Part shown: positions 11,628 through 37,723 of the stretch, in pieces
Layout: each line of letters opens with the position of its first letter
Numbering within the stretch: the first letter of the stretch is position 1
Program-made: the position numbers and the translations under genes
Assembly (NCBI GenBank): GCA_964634355.1
Contig: CAZWIF010000001.1
Span: forward strand, 1 to 50,389
DNA from: an uncultured Clostridium sp.
GTDB lineage: Bacteria; Bacillota; Clostridia; TANB77; CAG-508
Reading direction: 5' to 3'
Length of the DNA stretch: 50,389 nucleotides
Notes under the pieces: generated by a model
The model's database searches: none
What the model was told of the DNA's origin: nothing
What the model saw: only the letters and a program-made list of their open reading frames with translations

Positions 11628-12455
11628 GTGGCTACAAAAAGTAAAAGAGTTACTACGAGTCAGCCAAAAGAGCCTAAAAAAATTTGTCAAAATCAATCTT
11701 GCGATGCTATGGGTAGATACCAAAATAAGAGTAATTTTTATAAGTCAAGAAATATATCAATAGGGTATCATCCTTATTGTAAAGAATGTGTTAATAAAAT
11801 AATAGATATTGACAATATGCAAACGGTTTATGATGTTTTGCAGACTTTAGACACGCCATTTATACAGGATGTCTGGAAAGAGGCTCTGGCGGATGTAGAT
11901 GGTAATTTTATAGATAGGTATTTAAATTTAATAAATAACACATATAAGACAAGATATGAAAATGCAAGATTTAAAGATAGCATTTATGATAGTGAAATGG
12001 TATTAGAAAAAGATGAAGATGGAAAAGAAATTAAAAACTGGGATGATACTTGGCAAGGGTATTATTCAAAAAGAGAATTAAATTATTTAAATAAATACTA
12101 TCAAGATTTAAATAATGACTTTAAAATAATAACGACTAATCATAAGGATTATGCTCGAAGAATTGCACAGGCTTCGTTAACAATGAATGATACTTACAAT
12201 ATAATGAGAGATAATCCAGATGATAAAGATGCAGTTAGTGCTTATAACACTGCTGTATCGAATTTTGATAGATTATCAAAATCAGCACAATTCGCTGAAA
12301 GCCAAAGAGGAGCAAACGATGTTTCCTTGGGCTGTTTCGGTAGGGTATTTGATGCTGTAGAAAAACATAATTTTGTTCCTCAACATATACCAGAAGATAA
12401 AGATATGTTTGATAAAATTATAGACCAATTTTCAAATATTGAGAAGAGTTTATAA
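11628..12455 (+). CDS. Putative terminase small subunit (Cys-rich N-terminus), 275 aa
   Basis: Lies immediately upstream of terL with a TAATG overlap. GTG start after GAAAGGTGA. The assignment is positional only. Confidence 0.4.
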   Translation: MATKSKRVTTSQPKEPKKICQNQSCDAMGRYQNKSNFYKSRNISIGYHPYCKECVNKIIDIDNMQTVYDVLQTLDTPFIQDVWKEALADVDGNFIDRYLNLINNTYKTRYENARFKDSIYDSEMVLEKDEDGKEIKNWDDTWQGYYSKRELNYLNKYYQDLNNDFKIITTNHKDYARRIAQASLTMNDTYNIMRDNPDDKDAVSAYNTAVSNFDRLSKSAQFAESQRGANDVSLGCFGRVFDAVEKHNFVPQHIPEDKDMFDKIIDQFSNIEKSL

Positions 12456-14574
12456 TGGCAGTTAACATAAAAAAAGTCAGAAGAGGTGTTGAAGCTCAAA
12501 AAACTTGGGGATATGATAATACGGATTCCCCATTGAGTTATGACCCTATTAATGAAGAAAAAATTGATTATGAAGAATGGACTAAATTTTTATCGTACTA
12601 TAGATATTATGTTGATGAATTTGCAGTCGATATTTTAGGAATGGATAATTTATTTCCATTTCAAAGATTATTATTAAGAGCAATGGGAAGATTCCCAAAC
12701 ATAATGTTTATTATGTGTAGAGGTAGACGTACTGTTATGCCCCTGATTTATGGTGACATAAATCTAAGCATCGGGCAAAATCGGTGAAGGCTAAAATTAT
12801 AATCGAGGAGATAAAATGAAATATATGACAAAGTAATATAGTAATAAAAGGTTATAATAATGTTAATACCGAGATAATTATCTAAATTAAAAAGTAGATA
12901 ATATTGTAACGCATAGAGATTGAAACTTTATAAAAAGAATATAATATCTCCACGAGTGTCCGACATCTTATACAAAGATGAAAATATATGCTAATCTGAA
13001 ATGGAATTGACCATTTAATGAAAATGAGGGAAACCTCCAGAGTGATAGATAAAAAGCTATCAGTTAAGAACATAATGTTAACCAAGTCTTATATTGCTGC
13101 AATATTCATTTGCTGTATGGCTATTTTATATCCAGGTATGGCGATAGGTATAGTATCTGGAAACGGTAATCAAGCAAGAATGGTTATTAAACAGAAAATA
13201 GAAGGAGAATTATGTAAGAACGAAAATATTAAAAGAGAAATTAAAAGTATAAAAACAGGTATGGACGATTGTGTCGTTACTTTTAAAAATGGAAGTTCTA
13301 TAAGAGCCTTTACATTAGGTAATAATCAAAAAGGTGATACCAGTAGAGGATTAAGATTTCAATTGATATTAGTTGATGAGGCGAGATTGGTTAAGACAGA
13401 AGTTTTAAAACAAGTTTTAGTACCAATGACAAAAACTCCAAGAACTAATGCGATAGATTTAAAAAAGAGATTCCCAGATGCACCTTATGAAGAAGGTCGT
13501 ATGGTTTATATTTCTTCTGCTTGGTTAAAAACTTGTGATTTATATCAAAGATTTTTAAATTTCTATAGTCAAATGATTGCGGGAGATAAAAATTATTTTG
13601 TTGCTAGTCTTGATTATAGAGTGGGTATAGATGCAGGATTATTTACAGAAGAAAATATGATGATAGAAAAAAATGACCCGGAAATGACTCTCGACAAGTG
13701 GGCTTACGAGTACGAAGGTCGATTTGTTGGTAGTGCAAATGATAGTTATTATCCTTATGATATAACTTCAAAATGTAGGTCATTAGATAGATGTGAATTA
13801 GAACAGCCTAAAAAATGTCAATATAGATATATAGTAACGCACGATGTAGCCGTATCTGGCAAATCAGGTTCGGATAATGCCTGTACTCATGTTATAAAAT
13901 TAATTCCTAGAAAAAATGGTACATTTACTAAACAAGTTGTTTTTACAAAGACAATGAATGGAGCAACATTAAAAGAGCAAAGAGATTTTTTAAGGGAACT
14001 TATTCATATTAGATTTCCTAATACAGATAAATTAGTAATAGATGCTCAATCTGCTGGGCAAGGTTTGTTATCTTTATTAGAAGAGCCTTGGACTGCGAGA
14101 AATAATAGGGGAGAAATAGAAGAATTTCCTCCGTTGATTTGTGACGATGATGAAGAAGCACAAATATTATTACCAGATGCAGAGCCCTTAATAAGAGGGA
14201 TAACTGCTACTCAAGAATTTAATAGCACTTTTTATCCATATATGAAAAGTGGATTTGAAGACAGGAGCTTACAATTATTAGTAGACAGCAGTGAAAAAGA
14301 TGAAGAATATAAGAGTGGAAAATATAGACCTGAAGAACAGTTAATTCATATTGAACACGATAGTTTAGTTCAAGAATTAAGTAACATAAAACAATCATAT
14401 TCTGAATATGGGAAGATAATTTATACTAGAATTGTTAAAAGTAAAAAGAGAGACCGTGTTACAAGTTTAATGTATGGTTTATCTGTTGTTTGGGAATATG
14501 AGAAACAAGGAAAAGCAGATATGTATAAAAAAGAGGTAGACCCTCTTTCATATTTAAAAAAATATATATATTAA
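12455..14574 (+). CDS. terL: Terminase large subunit, split gene: exon 1 12455-12724, exon 2 13078-14574 (588 aa after splicing)
   Basis: Exon 1 ends ...FIMCRG and exon 2 starts LTKSYIAAIF.... Joined, CRG|LTKSYIAAIF has the spacing of the T4 gp17 Walker A region SRQLGKTTVVAIF. Exon 2 carries Walker B LILVDEA and a nuclease-domain-like IVTHDVAVSG. Confidence 0.8.
12725..13077 (+). mobile_element. ORF-less intervening sequence in terL, probable group I intron (353 nt)
   Basis: The 5' exon ends in U (GGT at 12722-12724) and the insert ends in G (13077). Candidate P1 is AGAGGU / GCCCCU (12739-12744) with a terminal U.G pair. Candidate P7 is GGAGAT (about 12806) / ATCTCC (about 12945), the latter preceded by the J8/7-like AAGAATATAAT. 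Stops occur in all frames. Confidence 0.65.
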
Positions 14575-27598: not shown

Positions 27599-30500
27599 AT
27601 GGATTATAACATAAAATTAGGGATTCAATTAGATGAAAGTTCCATCACTAAAATAAAAACTGATTTAGATACTAAATTAAAAGATGAAAATTTTGAAGTT
27701 AGTTTTAGTTCAACAGGATTAGACGATGTTTCCAAAAAGCTAGATGAAATTAGCACTAAATTAGGAAATGTTTCTAAAGAAGACAGTTTTAATAAAACCT
27801 CTTCCGGTGCAAAAACAGCCTCTAAAGCAGTTGATACTTTAAATAGCAAATTAGAAAAGACTACCAAGCACATTAAGAATCAATCTTTTGCGACAGATAA
27901 TTGGACTTATAACTGGTCTAAAGCAATGCAATCATTCTTGACTTATAATACAGTAACTCAATTCTTTAATACAATAAGCAATGGTATTCAAGATATGATT
28001 ATGGAAGTTAAAGACCTCGATGATTCTTTAACTGAATTAAAGAAAGTAACTGACCTAGAAGGAGAATCCTTAGAAAATTTTGTTAGTGAGGCATACTCGG
28101 CGGGGCAAAATGTAGCTAAAACCGGAAAAGAAATGGTTGATTCGGCTACCTCATTTGCTAAAGCTGGATATGACGATAGTGAAATTTTAAAACTAGGTGA
28201 AGTTGCGGCTATGTATACAAACATCGCCGATGAAGAAATATCAACTGCTGATGCAGCTGATTTTATTATAGCTCAATTAAAAGCATTTAACTTAGAGGCT
28301 AGTGATACCAATGAAACATTAGAAAATTCATATCATATTATAGATGCTGTTAATGAGGTTTCAAATAACTTTGCTGTCAGTTCTTCTGATATAGCAACAA
28401 ATATGGGTAAGGCATCATCGGTAATGGCAAATGCAGGAAACTCAATGGAGCAAATGATTGGCTTAAATAATAGGTCAAGTAAAATAACCTTAATTGACGG
28501 GGAGTTCCTTAGAGATATTATAAACCAACCTATAACAGTAATGTATATAGGGGCTCTGACGTAATGGTCGAGGTATGGTAAAATATATAATATATTGGAT
28601 GACCCGCAGCTAAGCATCCTAAGAGTAAGGATGAAAGTTCAACGATTAGTAAGTCCATATAATTATGGCATAGGCTCAAATGAGCTGAAATGGGTTACAT
28701 TTATGAAACGAATCATAAATGAAGATATAATCTAATCTTATATGAAAATGTAAGGAGTTGTTTTATAATGTATAAAAATCAAAAAAAAACAAAAGAATTT
28801 ATTGAAAATTTTTTTAAAAATAGAGGATATTGTGTAGAGGAAGAATATATTAATTCATCTACTCCTATAAAAATAAAAGATAAAAATGGCTATATTTCCA
28901 AAATAACTTATAGTAATTTAAGAATGGGGGAAAAACCAACTTTTTTTGGAATTAATAATGAATTTTTAGAGGATAATGTCAAAACTCTTATAAAAAAAAC
29001 AAACAAAAATATTGTTTTTGAAAAATATGAAATTATTACTAAAAGTAAAAAAAAAAGAGTTTTAGTTTATATGCAGTGTGAATGTGGCAATCATTTTAAA
29101 AGAGTATTGGATGATATAAATAGAAAAGATAGAGGGTTATATTGTAATGAATGTGCCAAGAGAAAAAGAGGATTAAATCATAGAAAAGACAAAAACGAAA
29201 TGTTTAATAAAATAGAGTCCCTTGGATATAAGATATTAGATAAAAGTAAGCACTATTTGAGAAATGAATACATTGAAGTAATAAATCAAAGAGGATATAG
29301 AGGTTTTGTTAAATATAATTATTTGATGTCAGGGAAACATATGACTATATTTAATGAACATATTAATTTATCTAATTTTGTTTATAATGCTAATATATAT
29401 GCAAAAGAGAATAATATAAATTGTGAAGTATTAGAATTAAGTAAATTAAAAAAATGGAATAGACAGGGATTAAAAATAAAATGTGAATGTGGGAAATTAT
29501 TTGAAACATCTGTTGCTTCTTTTCAAAATGGAAAAATAAGATGTGACAAATGTTCAAACTCTATGTCAAAATTTGAATTTGCAGTCAAATCGTATTTAGA
29601 AGAGAGTAATATTAAATATATTAAAGAATTTTACTTTAATGACTGTAGAGATGTATTACCTTTACCTTTTGATTTTTATTTAGTAGACTTTGATAAAATT
29701 ATTGAGGTTGATGGACAAGGACATTATTATCCTGTTTCTTTTGGGGGAGATAAAGAACAAAATTTCATTATAACTAAAACCCATGATAAAATAAAAAATG
29801 ATTATTGTAGGGAAAAAAATATTCCATTACTTAGATTATCTTATAAAGATATTGAAAATGGAGAGTATATAAAAATTATAAAACAATTCATTGAAGATTA
29901 ATGACCTTCAATTAATATTATGTATTAACTGCTGGTACAGAAATTACAAGAAATGCAAGCAAGGTGGCAAATGGGCTTAAAACAATCACACTTCGCCTCC
30001 AAGAGAATTTTATAAACCCTTGGAATGTACAGAAATGTGCATTAAGAACAAGTTTAATTGCAGGTAATGCGTAAAGCTTCACACCGAAACAAAAAGATGA
30101 AATATGCTTAAGTGGAATGGTACGAAAGTAGAAAAAACGTGAAGATGATATATGGATGAAAATCCTAAGTATTGTAAACAATCGCTGTTCTTGCAGCCAA
30201 GTCTCGAATAGAGAAAGGCTCAACGACTATCCTTTAGACAGGCGAAAAATAAATATGTCAATAGGAGTAGGGCTCAAATCGTAAATGGAGTGGGTGAAAA
30301 TCCCTTAAATCGAAAAGGCTTGCCCTTAACAGGTAATGCTGAAGGTGATGAAATAGTCTGGACTTATGTGAAAGCATAAGAATATATAAAGTTATTAGGA
30401 AATAAGGGGAGAAAAAATGATTAGTCAAATAAAAAGAAATAATTAATAACTTTATATATTAGTGAATGTTGCGTATTCACTATAACAAAATCGGTATGAA

Positions 30501-33500
30501 TGACGAAGGAGAAGAAGACCTTGAGTTACAAGCCCAAATGGAAGAATTATTTAATAAATTAGGAGTATCTGTATATAATGCCAATGGAGAATTAAAAAAT
30601 ACTTATGATATATTAGATACTTTGGCACCTGTTTATGAAAATTTAACAGCTGCCGAGAAAAGTTATGTAACAGAAACAATTGCAGGTTGACTTATACTAG
30701 CCTGACCTTATGGAAACATAAGGGTTAAGAACGAATTTAACTGCTGGGAACTCGTGAAGATAAGTAAGCTACAACATAATTGGAAACGATAAGTGTGAAT
30801 GCGAAAAAATTACTTATTATATGATAATCAGCAACCAAGCTCCGTTATAGGAGAAGGCTCAACGACTATCCCAAATGGGAGTACACTCAAGTGAGTGGAA
30901 AAGGTTCGCATCTATAGATAGATGAAAATATAGTCTAGGCTTATGTGAAAATATAAGAAAGGATATTTAAGATGAAATTAAAATTAATAGAAGAAAAAGA
31001 TATAAATGGGGTAAAACAAAAAGCAAAATATATTGACGAAGAAGGATACTTATATAATTTAGATAATTTAAATAAATCAAAAGGAAGATTTTCAAGATTC
31101 AATCCTTATACTATAGAGAACATACATAATTATATAAAAATTAATAATATTTCTACAAAATTAATAAGCGATACTTTTAATTATGCGGCGAAAAATTGTC
31201 ATTTAACTTTTCAATGTGGTATGTGTCATAAAAATTTTGAGAGAACATGGAATAATTTTTATAAAGGCAAATATAAATATTGTCAAGATTGTATAATTAA
31301 AATACAAGCTAAAGAAAAATATTTTACAATAGACGAAGTAAAGGAAAAATGTTTAAAAAAAGGCTTTAAAGTTATACAAGAGGAATATTATGGAAATCGA
31401 GAGCCATTAGATGTTGAAGATAAAGATGGATATAGAGGAAGAACAACTTGGAATGAAATAAAAAATGGGAAACATTTTATTAAATTTAGGATTCAAAACC
31501 CTTATTTTTATTATAATGTAAGAAATTATTTCAAAATTAATAATTATAATTGTGATATAGTAGAAAATAGTGGAGAAGAACGAAAAAGCAAGTTTAAATT
31601 TATATGTGAGTGTGGAAAAGAGTATATTTCAACATTAGATGAAGTTCTCAATAATACCAAGCCTAGAATTAGATGTAAAGCCTGTTCAAATTCTATTTCT
31701 AATGGTGAAAAGGCTATTATGGATTGGCTTGATAAGAATAAAATAGAATATATATATCAATATAAATTTAATGATTGTAGAAATATAAAACCTTTGCCAT
31801 TCGACTTTTTTTTGCCTAAATTTAATATATGTATAGAATTTGACGGACAGTATCATTTTGAGAGGCAGGCTCATACAACTGAAAAGCAATTTGAATATCA
31901 AAAAATGAGAGACAATATTAAAACTGAATATTGCAAAAATAATGAAATAAAATTAATTAGAATTCCTTATTGGAATTTATATAATAAAAAATATAAGAAT
32001 ATATTGAAACAAAATATCCTTATGTAAAATTAACGACTTTACATTTACTTTACGAAATACCAAGCCCAGAACGCTGCTGCCATACTTTCCAATTGGTCAA
32101 CAGCTGTTGAAGCAACAACAACTGCACTAAACAGTAATGGCAGTGCTGCAGAAGAAAATGCCAAAGTTATGGATTCTGTTCAAGGTCATTTGCAGAAATT
32201 GCAAAGTTCCTGGTCTGAATTTGCAAATAGTATATTTAATTCAGGTATTTTAAAATTATTTATTGATATAGGAAACGCAATGTTAAGTTTTGCTAATATC
32301 AAATTGCCAGGATTAGATACATCTATTGCTAAAATTACAATTCTAGCCGGAGCGATAAAATTATTAACGCCAGCATTAATTGAACTTAAAAATAAAATTA
32401 TGGCTACTACAGATAGCTTAAGTAAAAATTCTATTCAAATGTTAATGAATACGGAAGCTATTGAAGCTTGTGATAAAGCTACTAAGAAACAAATATTAAG
32501 TTTGTTAAGTGCTAAAGGTGCTTACAATAAAAACAACGATTCTTTAAGTAAAAACACAAAAGCTGCTATAAAGAATACTTTAATAAAATCCGGTATGTCT
32601 AAAGCGGATGCTAAAGTTGCTGTTGCGACAATTGCTGAGACTAGTGCCACCAAAGGATTAACCGCTGCTACTTGGGGACAAGTTGCCGCACAGAAAGCTT
32701 TACAAGCTGCAAAATCAATGAGTTTATCTTTATTGGCATCTGCAGCGATTGAAGGGGCAATTAAACTTGTTTCTAAATTAATAGAGGTCTATAAAGAAGG
32801 TCATAAGACTGCCGAGGAAGTATATAATGATGCAAAAGAAGAGTATGATGAAATTCAAACCGAATTAGACGATATAAATAGTCAATTAGAAGAAACAGCT
32901 AATAGAATAGATGAGTTGAATAGTGAAGATAGCTTGTCTTTTATAGAGAAAAGTGAACTTGATAAGCTAAAGGATACAACTAAAGAGCTGATTAAACAAC
33001 AAAAACTTCTTAAAGAGAAAGAGGAAAAAGCACAAAAAGAGAAAGAAAAAGCAGCAGATGCGGCAGCTGAATCTGATTTAAATAGCAACGTCAAATATAA
33101 AACTACAAAAAAATATGTTAAAGATACTTCCTTCTTAACTAATTTTAATAAAAATAATTTGATACCATCCAGTGATAATACATTAAATTTTAATTATCAA
33201 ACAAAAGAATTAGAAACTTATCTTAGTGCATTAGAGGAATTAAAAAATAAGTATAAGGATAATAAAGATTTAGTAAGTCAAATAGATGCTGAAATTAATA
33301 GGGTAAAAACCGATTCAAATGCTACAAACGATGTAGAGGTAAATGTATCAACATCTTTAAAAAAAGCTGCTGAAACTAATGTTAAATCTTATCAAGACTA
33401 TACAAAACAGATAGAAGAAAATAAAAATAAAATAAAAGAATATCAAAAACAAGTTGAAGAGTATGAAGAAAAAAATCCTCTCGTTAAGCAATCAGAAACA

Positions 33501-36500
33501 TTGGGTATGACGCCTCAATTTGAGGTTGGTAGCCAAGAGTCGCAAGACTATTTTGGTTATAAAGCGGCACAAGAACAAATAAAAAAACTACAAGAGGAAC
33601 AAGATAATTTAAATAAAAAAAGAACAACTGCAAAAGATAATTTAAAAGATGAACAAACAGCTTATGAAAATATTTTAACTAATGAAGAATATCGAAATGA
33701 TTTGTCTGATGAAGAATTACAGAAATTATATGAACAATATGAATTGATTTTAAAAATATCCGACCCAAATAAATATAAAGATATGAAATTTACAGATTTT
33801 ATGAGTGACGATGACAATAAAGATGCTGCAAATCAGTTATTAAGTTTAAAAGATGCCGGAAAAGTTACTGCTAAACAAATTAAGGAATTAGCTAAAGAAT
33901 TTCCTGAATTTAATAATTATTTAACCAATACAGATACATCGGCACAGGAGGCGGCTGACCAATTAAATAGTATGACTGGTGAAACTGAGGCATTATTAAA
34001 AGCTCAAATAGAGTCTGTTGATTCTTGGTCTGATACTATGTCAAATCTCCAATCGCAATATGACACTTTAACATCGGCTGTAGATGAATATAATAATAGT
34101 GGTTATATTAGTGGCTCAACGATGAAAAGTCTGGTAGATAGTGGTGTATTACAATATTTAGAATGGGAAAATGGACAATTAGTCGCCAACACAGGTGCTC
34201 TTTATGATAATGCAGATGCTGCAAAAATACTTGCATTAACTGAATTACAAACTGCGTATGCTAAAGATGTTCTTGCTATTACAACCGGTGATTTAACAGA
34301 CGCATCAGAAACAGCAAAAAACATTATTAAAGGCGAGAAGGATGAAATGGATGGCTTAGGAGATATTGCCAAGGCACAAGCTAAAGGATTATTCACTCTT
34401 GCGACAGCCGAAGCTGCTGCTGGTGACCCTGAGGCTGTTGCAGCTAAAGCCGAACAAATTAATAAATTAAATGATGCTTATAATAATATGGCTAAAACCA
34501 TGACCGAATTTGATTATAGCAGTGCAAGAGTAACTAGATATTCAGGTTCTAGTGACTCATCTGGTTCCAGCTCATCATCATCATCTTCAAAAGAATGGTG
34601 GGAAGAAGAACTAGACAACCTCAAAGACCAATTTGATTATAGTGAAATAACTATAAATGAATATATAAATGGACTTCAAGCTTTATTAAATAAGACTGAA
34701 GAGGGTTCAGAAGCTTGGAAGAAAATCAATAAAGAGCTTCAAAAGCAACGTCTCGATAAAGTTAAAGATGACTATGATGCCGGAAGAATCTCATTGACAC
34801 AATATATTAACGAACTTAAAAATTTACAAAAGGCATATAAAGCAGGAACAGACGCTTGGAATGATTTAGCAGATGCAATAAAAGATGCACAGCTGGATTT
34901 ATTAAAAGAACAACAATCTGATTTAGAGGCAGCATTATCTGCTGTTAACAATTTATTAGATGACCAAATAGATAAATATGAGGAAGCTAAAGATGCTGCT
35001 GATGAAAAATATGATGACGAAATAGAAAAACTTGAGGATTTACAAGAAGAGCTTGAAGAACAAGATGACAATTATCAAAGAGCACAACAGGCTGTTCTTG
35101 ATTATTTAAATGAACAACTAGACGCATTAAATGAACAAAAAGATTCAGTAGAAGAATATTATGATACTGTTATAGATGCTATAGAGAAGATGAATGAAGA
35201 ACAGTCTGAATCTATAGAATTAGCAGAGGCTTATGAATCATTGATGAACGCAATGACACAAAAGTCGAAGAAGGTAAAATATATGCTTTCTATAAAGATA
35301 GCTCAAAACGGGGAAACTCCTGAGAAGGACAATCCCGTGGGTAAGATTTATTTTAAATATATTATAATGAAAGGAGTAGAATTATGGCTAGTGGTAAAAG
35401 ATACACTATCGAAGAATTTAAAAATAAATTATTTAAAATAAAATCCCGTAACGACCACAGAGATATAGGTAACTATACTCGTATGCTATCCTTTCACTAA
35501 ATGTGATTGAAGGTATGGTCTGAACTGCAAATATAATCTAAAAAATGAAATTGCAGAGTTAGGTTTAACGACCTAACCGCCACATTGTGTGGTCAGTAAT
35601 CTATAAGATGAAAGTAACAGAGTTTGATATAAAGAAGGACTCGGTAAAAAGTTAGCCGAGTATAAAGATAACTATATCGGTCAAATGCTAGAAGTAGTAC
35701 AGACCGAGGTAAGATTGAATTTAAGGAGGTGCGTTTATGGGTAAAACAAAAAAAAAGACGCATCAAGAATTTTTAAAAGAAATGAAAATAAAACATCCAA
35801 ATTTAGAAATTACAGGTATTTACTATAATTCGTCAAGTAGAATTTCTTATATTTGTAAAAAATGTGGTTTGCATTGGAGTGCTAAAGCTGCAAAATTAAG
35901 CTTAGGCAGAGGATGTCCCAAGTGTGCAGGAAATAAGAGAAAAACTACCGAAGAATTTATTAAAGAAGTAAATAAGATAAATCCCAATATTAAAGTTTTA
36001 AGTGAATATAAAAGCACTTCTAATAAAGTGCTTTTTAAATGCAAGAAATGTGGGTATGAGTGGGAAACTTTTCCTGGTGGTGTATTAAGGGGAAAAGGAT
36101 GTATGATTTGCGGAAAAAAAAGTATGGGAGATAAATTAAGAAAATCTCATAAAGATTTTGCGAATGAAATTTCCTTAATTAATAATAATATAGAATTGAC
36201 AAGTGAATATCGAGGACAGAAAGAAAAAATATGGTGTCAATGCAAGAAATGTCGATATGAGTGGGAAACTTTTCCTACTACATTGTTAGCAGGACATGGA
36301 TGTCCTAACTGTTCCTTATCTAAAGGAGAAGAACAAATTTCAATAATTCTAAATAAATATAATTTACTATATGAAACTCAAAAAAAATTCTCAGGTTTAA
36401 TTGGAGTTGGAGGAAATCAATTATCTTATGATTTTTATATTCCAGAATTAAATCTTTTAATTGAATATCAAGGGAAACAACATAAAAGACCTATAGAATA

Positions 36501-37723
36501 TTTTGGTGGAGTAAAAACTTTTGAAAGACAAAAAATACACGATAAATTAAAAAGGAATTATGCAATTTCAAATAATTTTAATTTTTTAGAAATTTGGTAT
36601 TATGATAATTTACAAGAAAAATTAGAAAAGACCTTAGATTCAATAACCGTAACGACTGCAGGATATTAGTGGTAACATTAATATTGAAGTTATCACCTTA
36701 TTTACCCTATAAGGCAATATACAGTCTGGACTATGAATATAACAAAATGAAATCATAGAATTAGGCTTAACGACCTAATCGCCACAAATAAAAGTGGTCA
36801 GTAACCTATAAGGTGAAAGTAACAGTTCGTGGATTTGGACTACCGATGCCGAAGCTATAGCTGATGCTAAAAAGACTTATGAGGATTTGCTTACAAGTGC
36901 TACAACAAAAGAAATAGAAGAACAAAAAGATGCTACTATAAATTCATTAGAAGACCAAATAGAGGCATTACAAGAGTATATAGATTCTTGGGACGATGTA
37001 CTTAATAAATTTGATAATGAAAAAAATAGAAATTTAGCCGATTTATTACTTGGTGAAAATTGGACTGAAATGGTCTCCCAATTAGACCCACAAGTAGTAG
37101 AGGACTTTTCTGACGCTTATTATGAGCTTCAAAAGAATCTCGATGAAACAGAGAAACAAATAGAAGAATTAAATAAGCAAAAAGAAGAGGAAGATGAATA
37201 TTGGGATAAACTAATTGAAGATTTAGAAACTTATCAAGAAAAGTGGGATGAAGTATCAGATGCTTATGAAGAAGCTCAAGATGCTTTAAAAGCTGCTCAA
37301 ATAATAGGTGCAAATTGGGAAAAAGATATTCTTGACCAAAGACTTGATGTATTAGAAAACTTTAAAAATAAGTATAATGCAATACTTGCCGAAATTGATA
37401 AAGTTGATAATATGTCTACGGATGAAGCATCTAGTTATACAGCATTAAGATTACCTGGTTATGCTAATGGTGGTGAAATTGATTATACTGGTCTTGCAGT
37501 ATTACATGGAACACCAAATAAACCAGAATATGTTCTTAATAACACTCAAATGAGAAATTTACTAAGTAATCTTATCAAGCCAAAATTTACTTCTAATACA
37601 GCAACAGGTTCTTCAGTTACAAATAATTATAATTTTGGTAATATTGAATTACCAAATGTTACAAATGCAAGACAATTTGCTAACGAATTAAAATCTTTAT
37701 TAAATATAACTAAAAATCAATAA
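27599..37723 (+). CDS. Tail tape-measure protein (TP901/TIGR01760-like core), split gene. Exons: 27599-28463, 29923-29998 (or to 30003), 30495 (or 30494)-30687, 32055-35275, 36826-37723. Conceptual product is about 1750 aa.
   Basis: The joined exons read ...NAGNSMEQMIG|LLTAGTEITRNASKVANGLKTITLRL(Q)|(G)MNDEGEEDLELQ...YVTETIAG|KYQAQNAAAILSNWSTAVEATT...MTQKSKKV|SWIWTTDAEAIADAKK...GYANGGEIDYTG. This is a continuous canonical tape-measure core. Exon lengths sum to a multiple of 3 (5253 or 5259 nt). Confidence 0.85.
28464..29922 (+). mobile_element. Group I intron 1 (1459 nt, lineage A) carrying a homing endonuclease ORF
   Basis: P1 is UUGGCU (28458-28463) / GGUCAA (28473-28478) with U.G at the splice site. 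R element GTTCAACGATTAGT at 28637-28650. S element AAGATATAATCT at 28722-28733. P7 is GATT/AATC. A terminal 7-bp hairpin ATTGAAG/CTTCAAT is followed by 10 nt ending in G29922. Confidence 0.8.
28768..29901 (+). CDS. Intron-encoded homing endonuclease: Zn-ribbon (CxC...CxxC) repeats plus C-terminal DUF559/Vsr-like PD-(D/E)XK nuclease domain (377 aa)
   Basis: Own RBS AAGGAG. CECGNHF...CNEC and CECGKLF...CDKC modules. C-terminal FEFAVKSYLEESNIKYIKEF...LPFDFYLVDFDKIIEVDGQGH matches the DUF559 pattern E..l..L...F..Q....DF.......iE.DG..H. Confidence 0.7.
   Translation: MYKNQKKTKEFIENFFKNRGYCVEEEYINSSTPIKIKDKNGYISKITYSNLRMGEKPTFFGINNEFLEDNVKTLIKKTNKNIVFEKYEIITKSKKKRVLVYMQCECGNHFKRVLDDINRKDRGLYCNECAKRKRGLNHRKDKNEMFNKIESLGYKILDKSKHYLRNEYIEVINQRGYRGFVKYNYLMSGKHMTIFNEHINLSNFVYNANIYAKENNINCEVLELSKLKKWNRQGLKIKCECGKLFETSVASFQNGKIRCDKCSNSMSKFEFAVKSYLEESNIKYIKEFYFNDCRDVLPLPFDFYLVDFDKIIEVDGQGHYYPVSFGGDKEQNFIITKTHDKIKNDYCREKNIPLLRLSYKDIENGEYIKIIKQFIED
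29999..30494 (+). mobile_element. Group I intron 2 (about 490-496 nt, lineage A), ORF-deleted derivative. Ends are uncertain by about 5 nt.
   Basis: R element GGCTCAACGACTATCC (30217-30232) is identical to intron 3. S element GATGAAATAGTCTGG at 30347-30361. P2 hairpin AATGTACA-GAAA-TGTGCATT at 30024-30043. Relic RBS AAGGGGAG plus ATG at 30417 encodes only MISQIKRNN. Terminal hairpin AGTGAAT/ATTCACT. Confidence 0.65.
30688..32054 (+). mobile_element. Group I intron 3 (1367 nt, lineage A) carrying a homing endonuclease ORF
   Basis: P1 is CAGGU (30683-30687) / GCCUG (30700-30704) with a terminal U.G. P2 is CCTTATG-GAAA-CATAAGG (30706-30723). R at 30856-30871. S AAAATATAGTCT at 30925-30936. P7 is GACT/AGTC. 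The terminal hairpin ATGTAAA/TTTACAT is followed by 10 nt ending in G32054. Confidence 0.8.
30972..32027 (+). CDS. Intron-encoded homing endonuclease, paralogue of 28768-29901 (351 aa)
   Basis: Same architecture: CGMCHKNF...CQDC and CECGKEY...CKAC, with C-terminal GEKAIMDWLDKNKIEYIYQYKF...LPFDFFLPKFNICIEFDGQYH. Confidence 0.7.
   Translation: MKLKLIEEKDINGVKQKAKYIDEEGYLYNLDNLNKSKGRFSRFNPYTIENIHNYIKINNISTKLISDTFNYAAKNCHLTFQCGMCHKNFERTWNNFYKGKYKYCQDCIIKIQAKEKYFTIDEVKEKCLKKGFKVIQEEYYGNREPLDVEDKDGYRGRTTWNEIKNGKHFIKFRIQNPYFYYNVRNYFKINNYNCDIVENSGEERKSKFKFICECGKEYISTLDEVLNNTKPRIRCKACSNSISNGEKAIMDWLDKNKIEYIYQYKFNDCRNIKPLPFDFFLPKFNICIEFDGQYHFERQAHTTEKQFEYQKMRDNIKTEYCKNNEIKLIRIPYWNLYNKKYKNILKQNILM
35276..35620 (+). 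mobile_element. Group I intron 4a (345 nt, lineage B), ORF-deleted
   Basis: P1 is GAAGGU (35270-35275) / GCUUUC (35285-35290) with a 9-nt loop. P7 is GACC (35453-35456) / GGTC (35517-35520). The 3' 100 nt are roughly 80% identical by eye to intron 4b and end ...GAAAGTAACAG. A relic ORF at 35384-35500 starts MASGKRYTIEEFKNKLFKIKS, compared with MGKTKKKTHQEFLKEMKIKHP in 4b. Confidence 0.7.
35646..36825 (+). mobile_element. Group I intron 4b (1180 nt, lineage B) carrying a homing endonuclease ORF
   Basis: P1 is CUCGGU (35640-35645) / GCCGAG (35655-35660): five Watson-Crick pairs plus a terminal U.G, with a 9-nt loop. P7 is GACT (36654-36657) / AGTC (36723-36726). P8 is GTGGTAAC/GTTATCAC. P9-type hairpins are CTATGA/TCATAG, TTAGG/CCTAA and CCAC/GTGG. 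It ends at G36825. Confidence 0.8.
35737..36669 (+). CDS. Intron-encoded homing endonuclease, three CxxC...CxxC Zn-ribbon repeats plus DUF559/Vsr-like nuclease (310 aa)
   Basis: Strong RBS AAGGAGG. Repeats CKKCGLHW...CPKC, CKKCGYEW...CMIC and CKKCRYEW...CPNC. C-terminal GEEQISIILNKYNLLYETQKKF...SYDFYIPELNLLIEYQGKQH. The last codons overlap the P7 5' strand. Confidence 0.75.
   Translation: MGKTKKKTHQEFLKEMKIKHPNLEITGIYYNSSSRISYICKKCGLHWSAKAAKLSLGRGCPKCAGNKRKTTEEFIKEVNKINPNIKVLSEYKSTSNKVLFKCKKCGYEWETFPGGVLRGKGCMICGKKSMGDKLRKSHKDFANEISLINNNIELTSEYRGQKEKIWCQCKKCRYEWETFPTTLLAGHGCPNCSLSKGEEQISIILNKYNLLYETQKKFSGLIGVGGNQLSYDFYIPELNLLIEYQGKQHKRPIEYFGGVKTFERQKIHDKLKRNYAISNNFNFLEIWYYDNLQEKLEKTLDSITVTTAGY

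Follow-up and report, generated by a model that had tools for sequence, protein, structure and literature searches.

The large terminase gene (terL) of a phage genome lying in a 50,389-nucleotide (nt) stretch of DNA from an uncultured Clostridium sp. (contig CAZWIF010000001.1, positions 1 to 50,389; hereafter the window) is interrupted by 353 nt that fall within the codons of its Walker A loop. The locus raises the question of how a terminase with an intact Walker A motif is made from such a gene. A sequence-only reading of the window had proposed that the insert is a group I intron without an open reading frame (ORF), the exact excision of which restores the P-loop. This proposal was borne out by the presence or absence of the insert among closely related alleles and by covariation in its core, including the P3/P7 pseudoknot. 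The insert at 12725-13077 is very probably a group I intron, subgroup IA-like, in the large-terminase gene of an SPbeta/c-st-like phage of gut Firmicutes. Coordinates are those of the window, and all features described are on its forward strand.

Exon 1 of terL (12455-12724; codons 1-90) starts with the ATG at 12455 and ends with ATG TGT AGA GGT, encoding M-C-R-G. Exon 2 (13078-14574; codons 91-588 and the stop codon) begins with TTA ACC AAG TCT, encoding L-T-K-S, which completes Walker A; the Walker B motif LILVDE lies downstream in the same exon. The break of the reading frame after ...FIMCRG, its resumption at LTKSY and the presence of stop codons in every frame of the intervening 353 nt were all confirmed. 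The insert has a G+C content of 29% and no ORF, and its three forward frames contain 16, 14 and 9 stops. The frame of exon 1, in which GGT extends to 12724, reads 20 codons into the insert before it terminates. Both exons are open, with neither frameshift nor stop, and are ~95% identical to the TerL of intron-less relatives.

Such intron-less relatives fixed the boundaries of the insert. Sixteen IMG/VR loci encode a TerL 90-95% identical in amino acid sequence that is uninterrupted over 1764 nt, and five further loci with TerL 90-95% identical were found in GTDB genomes, namely gut metagenome-assembled genomes (MAGs) of goat, sheep and rabbit. In nucleotide alignments with the intron-less loci L004, L006, L008, L015 and L020, the gap corresponded exactly to 12725-13077 (...TGTAGAGGT|TTAAC...) and could not be shifted by a single base. 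T12724 (U in the transcript) is thus the final base of exon 1 and G13077 the final base of the insert, which settled the proposed U at position -1 and G at the 3' end. No target-site duplication was present at the insert ends in these alignments.

Excision of 12725-13077 joins ...CRG to LTKSY... in frame within the Walker A loop, and the predicted ligated junction is TGTAGAGGT|TTAACCAAG (longer form, ATGTGTAGAGGTTTAACCAAGTCT). The resulting 588-residue product matched Pfam Terminase_6N (E 4.5e-6, better than the curated cut-off) and PHROG large-terminase families. When aligned to intron-less homologues it showed no gap and no extra residues at the junction. The alignment was likewise ungapped over the junction with CST168 of Clostridium phage c-st (54% identity; CRG|LTKSY against CRGLGKSW) and with YonF of SPbeta (~29% identity). 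The anticipated colinearity with the P-loop of T4 gp17 (PDB 3EZK) held across Walker A (SRQLGKTTVVAIF) and Walker B, though the match was weak (E 0.32). The sequence LTKS in place of LGKS is native to this clade and not an artefact of the inferred splicing, because the intron-less alleles encode LTKS too. A megablast search of the terL DNA against phages gave no match.

The precise ends also bear on whether the insert could be a mobile or recoded element of another kind, such as a group II intron, an insertion sequence or miniature transposon, or a gap bypassed in translation as in T4 gene 60. Nothing beyond the interruption of a conserved gene speaks for any of these. The insert runs AGACG...AUAAUG rather than GUGYG...AY, is at 353 nt too short for group II domains I-VI, which take at least ~400-600 nt, and gave no match to RF00029 in the whole window or in 12600-13200. 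A transposon is opposed by the missing target-site duplication and by the absence of a terminal inverted repeat (5' end AGACGTACTG; reverse complement of the 3' end CATTATGTTC). A gap of 353 nt with 9-16 stops per frame far exceeds known bypass gaps. The pattern of conservation in the insert is explained by a group I fold, as set out below, and an element of these other kinds is accordingly very improbable.

Relatives of the insert were found at the nucleotide level. In a sensitive blastn search against GenBank phages, the 3' 60% of the insert had matches at 70-76% identity. In Staphylococcus phage 6ec and Clostridium perfringens phage vB_CpeS-1181 the matching stretch separates two halves of terL; in Yersinia phage phiR1-37 and in Bacillus phages AR9/PBS1 it separates halves of gyrA, which in AR9 is annotated as three joined pieces. 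Upstream of this stretch, 6ec, vB_CpeS-1181 and phiR1-37 have an ORF that is endonuclease-like or unnamed (g328 in phiR1-37). A degenerate 23-nt pattern was then made from the most conserved stretch and scanned over IMG/VR, where it identified family members on at least 120 contigs. Among the matches listed were 31 distinct compact, ORF-less members with ~165-360 nt between the P4 and P9.1 motifs. With a compact member as the query, a second blastn search extended the family to crAss-like phages, a Caldibacillus phage, a cyanophage and several staphylococcal siphoviruses; most of these records carry no annotation at the intron site. Membership of the window insert in this family was supported by an nhmmer profile built from 28 relatives with the window excluded, which matched the window only at 12768-13073 (E 3.5e-48, 158 bits).

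A group I model was drawn by eye from the window and the four GenBank relatives, and was evaluated on an alignment of other sequences. This MAFFT alignment (A4) consists of the window core (12764-13087) together with 28 further compact members that had played no part in drawing the model, and was not fitted to structure. It begins at P3, as a full-length MAFFT alignment misplaces the 5' half of the window because of an insert in P5. Across the 60 model pairs, 96.9% of 1658 cells held standard pairs, compared with 33.5-43.1% when the 3' partners were slid by 1-3 columns. Compensatory double changes occurred in 42 of the 60 pairs, against 16-19 in the slid controls, and not one of 500 shuffles matched any observed measure. 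In the window itself all 60 pairs were standard. Both P3 and P7 co-vary, supporting the P3/P7 pseudoknot, and the helix order P3-P4-P5-P4'-P6-P7-P3'-P8-P7' is found in the model of the insert. De novo folding of A4 by RNAalifold recovered P3, P4, P5, P6, P7.1, P8, P9, P9.1 and P9.2 and added an invariant CUG/CAG helix that closes the P9 domain. P7 was not drawn by this program because it belongs to the pseudoknot.

The fold also bears on the notion of a split terminase, in which two terL pieces would be translated separately and assemble, with the insert as a mere spacer. An ATG at 13018 does open a 518-codon ORF that continues into exon 2. This ATG lies, however, within the family-conserved segment AUGAAAAUGAGGGAAACC of the RNA structure, and the exon 1 frame runs on for its 20 codons into the insert before a stop. 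Since the break divides the P-loop (CRG|LTKS), neither piece would possess a complete Walker A, and a conserved, co-varying RNA fold would be left without a role. We regard separate translation as highly unlikely.

The predicted structure of the intron may be followed from its 5' end. The last six bases of exon 1, AGAGGU (12719-12724), form the 5' strand of P1, and the guide U-GCCCCU (12738-12744) its 3' strand. With exon AGAGGU|A, six of the seven P1 positions pair, including the U12724.G12739 wobble at the 5' splice site. The P1 first proposed from the sequence, AGAGGU/GCCCCU with one mismatch, was thereby supported, the mismatch being an A.C at position -4. The guide adjoins P2 directly on its 5' side in all relatives inserted at the same site (site A, see below) and changes along with the exon. 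The exon 1 end GAGGU is accompanied by the guide GCCUC in L089 and L061 and by GCUUC in L125 and L045, GCGGU by GCCGC in L066, and GGGGU by GCUCU in L055. A P10 pairing of GUUA (12734-12737) with UAAC of exon 2 (13079-13082) would be possible. P2 (12745-12764) is an 8-bp hairpin, GAUUUAUG-GUGA-CAUAAAUC, with a GNRA loop; a hairpin occupies this position in 33 of 33 relatives, 17 of them with a GNRA loop.

The core begins with the 5' strand of P3, UCGGGC (12771-12776), followed by J3/4 AAAA. Its partner GUCCGA (12958-12963) closes the pseudoknot; 5 of the 6 pairs are compensatory and 99.4% of cells are paired. P4 pairs UCGGU (12781-12785) with ACCGA (12868-12872), thereby enclosing P5 within 12781-12872, and is invariant in 29 of 29 sequences. 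In P5, GGC (12789-12791) pairs with GUU (12862-12864) and the proximal pairs co-vary; an extension of this helix, AUUAUAAU (12796-12803) with GUUAUAAU (12851-12858), is present in the window only. P6 (12873-12905) is a hairpin, GAU-AA-UUAUCU ... AGAUAA-U-AUU, in which 8 of 9 pairs are compensatory. P8 (12964-12980; CAUCUU-AUACA-AAGAUG) is compensatory in all six pairs.

P7 is formed by A[C]GCAUA (12909-12915), in which C12910 is bulged, and UAUGCU (12987-12992), which is preceded by J8/7 AAAAUA. All of its cells are paired and 4 of its 6 pairs are compensatory. The pair G12911:C12991 (alignment columns 181:346) is invariant in 29 of 29 sequences and lies beside the bulge at column 180, and is presumed to be the guanosine-binding site on the basis of the model. 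This placement of P7 replaces the one proposed earlier, GGAGAT/ATCTCC. By covariation, AUCUC (12946-12950) pairs locally with GAGAU (12916-12920) as P7.1 (12916-12950; 4 of 5 pairs compensatory), and GGAGAU (12807-12812) lies in the P5-loop insert and is without counterpart in relatives. The rejected pairing is one that a single-sequence minimum free energy fold draws. A hairpin CUUU/AAAG (12926-12937) is nested in P7.1 of ~13 of the 29 members, including the window. P7.1 co-varies, and there was no sign of a separate P7.2; introns of subgroup IA typically have an additional domain between P7 and P3'.

The P9 domain (12996-13062), with its invariant CUG/CAG closing helix, contains the hairpins AAAUGG/CCAUUU (12999-13016) and GAGG-GAAA-CCUC (13026-13037), and P9.2, UGAUAG/CUAUCA (13043-13062). 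In A4, 5 of 6 pairs are compensatory in P9 and again in P9.2. The 3' tail GUUAAGAACAUAAUG (13063-13077) ends in G13077, the omega-G. The tail GUUAAUAAC..G is conserved across the intron family, and the final G also occurs in relatives with a readable in-frame exon 2. A tetraloop-receptor idea, linking a receptor-like GCUAAG...UAUGC motif in P5 to the GAAA loop of P9.1, was dropped; no more than 11 of 29 relatives have the motif, and the window has a degenerate form of it.

With this structure, splicing would follow the standard group I pathway. The pre-mRNA is predicted to form P1, with U12724.G12739 at the 5' splice site, followed by P2, while P3-P8 and P4-P6 would make up the core domains. 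P7 would provide the guanosine pocket, G12911:C12991 beside bulged C12910, with P7.1 and P9-P9.2 in peripheral positions. Free guanosine would attack after U12724; the terminal G13077 would then enter the pocket, and the 3'-OH of exon 1 would attack after G13077. GGT would thereby be joined to TTA, restoring the Walker A codons for C-R-G-L-T-K-S, and a single TerL of 588 amino acids would be translated.

Several observations weigh against this interpretation. A12721 stands opposite C12742, giving the A.C mismatch at -4 in P1, which is absent in seven site-A relatives. The P5 receptor-like motif is degenerate. P4 and most of P9.1, being invariant, carry no information on structure; the invariance of P9.1 was partly forced by the search pattern used to collect the relatives. 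The Rfam group I model RF00028 gave no match in 12600-13200 (601 bases) at E<=10. Finally, no second copy of the window intron was found by exact patterns for the junction/P1 loop, the P5 insert and P2 in viral and metagenome contigs, and a single sighting does not speak for its persistence over time. The main residual doubt is that the P1 mismatch or lost peripheral contacts may impair splicing.

The Rfam result was placed in context by a positive control. RF00028 gave no match at its gathering score in the whole window either, and none in the four GenBank relatives, or in nine compact relatives and L026. The same model scored the bnrdE intron of SPbeta at 92.4 bits and its bnrdF intron at 41.8 bits. 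The cmsearch with RF00028 that had been suggested as a check was thus negative although the model works on the control, and these negatives reflect the divergence of the family from the Rfam model rather than a missing group I structure.

The remaining doubts could be taken to mean that the insert is a decayed group I intron, which has lost splicing or splices too poorly, with terL as a pseudogene and the genome as that of a defective prophage or a dead end. The A.C mismatch takes the place of a Watson-Crick or wobble pair in P1 of the relatives, an endonuclease gene is lacking, with only a 6-codon stub behind a ribosome binding site (RBS)-like AGGAGAU in P5, and the receptor-like motif and the single sighting of the window copy would fit decay as well. 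A single mismatch in a 7-position P1 is, however, usually tolerated by group I ribozymes. All 60 core pairs are intact in the window, which matches every invariant column of A4 (by construction) and scores 158 bits against the family profile, and both exons have remained open. Decay is consequently considered improbable, if less so than the other alternatives, and an intron that is still removed by splicing is the preferred explanation.

Comparison with known systems places the intron among phage elements already on record. The inserts of 6ec (KJ804259) and vB_CpeS-1181 (MW478292) also interrupt terL, and P4', P6, P7, P7.1, P3', P8, P7' and P9-P9.2 could be aligned with the window at 71-85% identity over ~130-210 nt. 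They differ from it in their endonuclease ORF in P5, their length of ~0.9-1.2 kb and their positions in terL, that of 6ec immediately preceding Walker B (with RKANVFVADE at the start of exon 2). Both are presented in GenBank as two terL coding sequences (CDSs) with an ORF between them, and not as introns. The gyrA introns of AR9/PBS1 and phiR1-37 are 74-84% identical to the window in their 3' half (P7 to P9.2 and the tail), but differ in host gene and in their 5' half (the P3-P6 region). The AR9 transcriptome paper mentions introns and contains no splicing data for gyrA.

No sequence match was detectable between the window family and SPbeta bnrdE/bnrdF. The bnrdE intron nevertheless shares, in an RF00028 alignment, the P7 geometry A[C]G..UA with UA..CU, the J8/7 consensus AAxAUAUA and an extra domain between P7 and P3'. 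P7 is A[C]GACUA/UAGUCU in bnrdE (J8/7 AAGAUAUA) and A[C]GCAUA/UAUGCU in the window family (J8/7 AAAAUAUA), so that only the two middle pairs are swapped, CA/UG instead of AC/GU. The introns of T4 td, nrdB and sunY and of Twort orf142 are classical phage subgroup IA introns with the same overall architecture; the window family departs from classical IA in having a single P7.1 with an optional nested hairpin in place of P7.1 and P7.2.

A group I intron in terL has reportedly been found in Lactobacillus phage LL-H. Among Bastillevirinae, 5 of 52 terL genes have introns, the majority of them IA2/IA3-like and many with endonuclease loops (PMC11878797), and dense intron loads have been described in crAss-like phages (PMC7886860). 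Group I introns in phage terL genes are therefore already known, and the element described here is of the same kind in the same gene.

The position within terL is not unusual either. In tblastn searches with the spliced TerL, at least 20 family members lay directly upstream of a terL exon starting at query residues 87-93; others were at ~residue 182, just before Walker B (the site of 6ec), and others at ~residue 233. At Walker A two registers 6 nt apart are used: site A, RG|xGK(S/T), and site B, RGxG|K(S/T). Site A is occupied in the window and in L042, L045, L052, L055, L061, L066, L071, L089, L117, L120, L125 and L134; site B in L048, L050, L051 and L067. The insertion site of the window intron is, on this sequence comparison, a recurrent target of the family. 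Homing introns tend to insert in essential genes at the sites that are most conserved and least free to mutate, and the repeated use of P-loop codons fits this tendency and adds no new principle.

Close intron-bearing relatives carry their introns elsewhere in the gene. In L026 (3238-3521, 3792-4154) and L025, whose TerL is 72% identical in amino acid sequence, a related intron occupies site B, that is CRGLG|KSW, which lies 6 nt downstream of the window site; in L026 this intron is similar to the window intron in its 3' half and to the AR9 gyrA intron in its 5' half. Just before Walker B (...ARG|...RFQLVLVDEA) these two loci have a further intron of classical appearance, which is the only intron in L027 (1912-3000) and in the MAG locus L161 (1919-3000) and occurs with or without an ORF-sized insert of ~1 kb. 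The rest of the terL clade of the window is intron-less, and within the clade site A is occupied in the window only.

Two side observations concern these loci. The IMG/VR contig of L125 encodes a ROOL RNA (Rfam RF03087, 272.8 bits) and a tRNA (172-761 and 1178-1248) ~2 kb upstream of its intron-bearing terL. The Firmicutes-type phage contigs of L161 (JAFRFB010000006.1) and L159 (JAEWPL010000222.1) are binned in Methanobrevibacter and 'Proteobacteria' MAGs; these binnings are probably artefacts and not host assignments.

The history of the window copy can be outlined in part from its relatives. An endonuclease ORF is located in the P1 loop of L052, L071, L117, L120 and L134, where it ends ...RKYEIYKSYYG(L/S)PA* upstream of the guide, in P5 of 6ec and vB_CpeS-1181, and in P6 of L061. 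The window intron is probably a derivative of such endonuclease-carrying relatives. Its P5 loop carries a window-specific insert (12806-12836) consisting of the RBS-like AGGAGAU, five bases and ATG AAA TAT ATG ACA AAG TAA, the 6-codon stub; the 47 nt of P5-loop insert overall are absent in the 28 compact relatives. The stub may be what is left of a homing-endonuclease gene. Exact patterns in viral and metagenome contigs did not reveal a parent intron with an endonuclease.

The guide of the window fits AGG GGT perfectly, whereas every intron-less allele has AGA GGT, and this better fit to AGG GGT than to the resident sequence suggests an origin in another terL lineage. Among 11 intron-less alleles, the region around the junction was not more divergent from the window than the rest (0-1 upstream and 3 downstream differences in the flanking 15 nt, against 10-16% overall). 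The three downstream differences, at 13083, 13086 and 13089 (ACC AAG TCT against ACA AAA TCA), are synonymous, fall in the first 12 nt of exon 2 and are private to the window among the 11 alleles, and the AAG codon that they produce is that of exon 2 in several site-A relatives. The private changes and the mismatch of guide and exon are compatible with, and no proof of, acquisition from a different terL lineage with a short co-conversion tract.

The window contains further candidate introns in its tape-measure gene, which is in at least four pieces separated by three inserts (28540-30470, 30690-32170 and 35440-36890). Each insert has an ORF of 310-377 codons (28768-29901, 30972-32027 and 35737-36669) encoding zinc-ribbon-like repeats and a C-terminal endonuclease-like motif, ...PLPFDF...DG..H..., and the RNA flanking the ORFs shows the classical group I elements CUCAACGACUAUCC ... 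GAAAUAGUCUGGAC. RF00028 found no group I match in the tape-measure region. The view that the terL intron differs from the tape-measure introns agrees with the terL family profile, which gave no above-noise match there.

For the genome itself, the appropriate annotation is one spliced terL of 588 amino acids, join(12455..12724,13078..14574), neither two fragments nor a pseudogene. Intron homologues in KJ804259, MW478292, AJ972879, NC_055894, MF595878 and other records stand under 'none', 'hypothetical protein' or a split 'terminase large subunit'. A broader proposal is put forward tentatively and is, in our estimate, rather doubtful as a whole. The compact introns (~250-350 nt) may constitute a large uncurated clade, on at least 120 IMG/VR contigs and in GenBank staphylococcal, clostridial, Bacillus jumbo, crAss-like, cyano- and Yersinia jumbo phages, that is invisible to the Rfam group I model, for the most part lacks annotation and has the ATPase-motif codons of terL as a recurrent target. 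On this view the window intron would be a derivative without endonuclease that was transferred recently and whose guide still fits its former exon AGG GGT, and the three private changes possibly a co-conversion scar. For the family, these data indicate that a common group of phage group I introns is missed by the standard Rfam model and lacks annotation in many deposited genomes, with the result that 'terminase' and 'gyrase' CDSs appear split. Many of these annotations would be mended by a covariance model made for the family.

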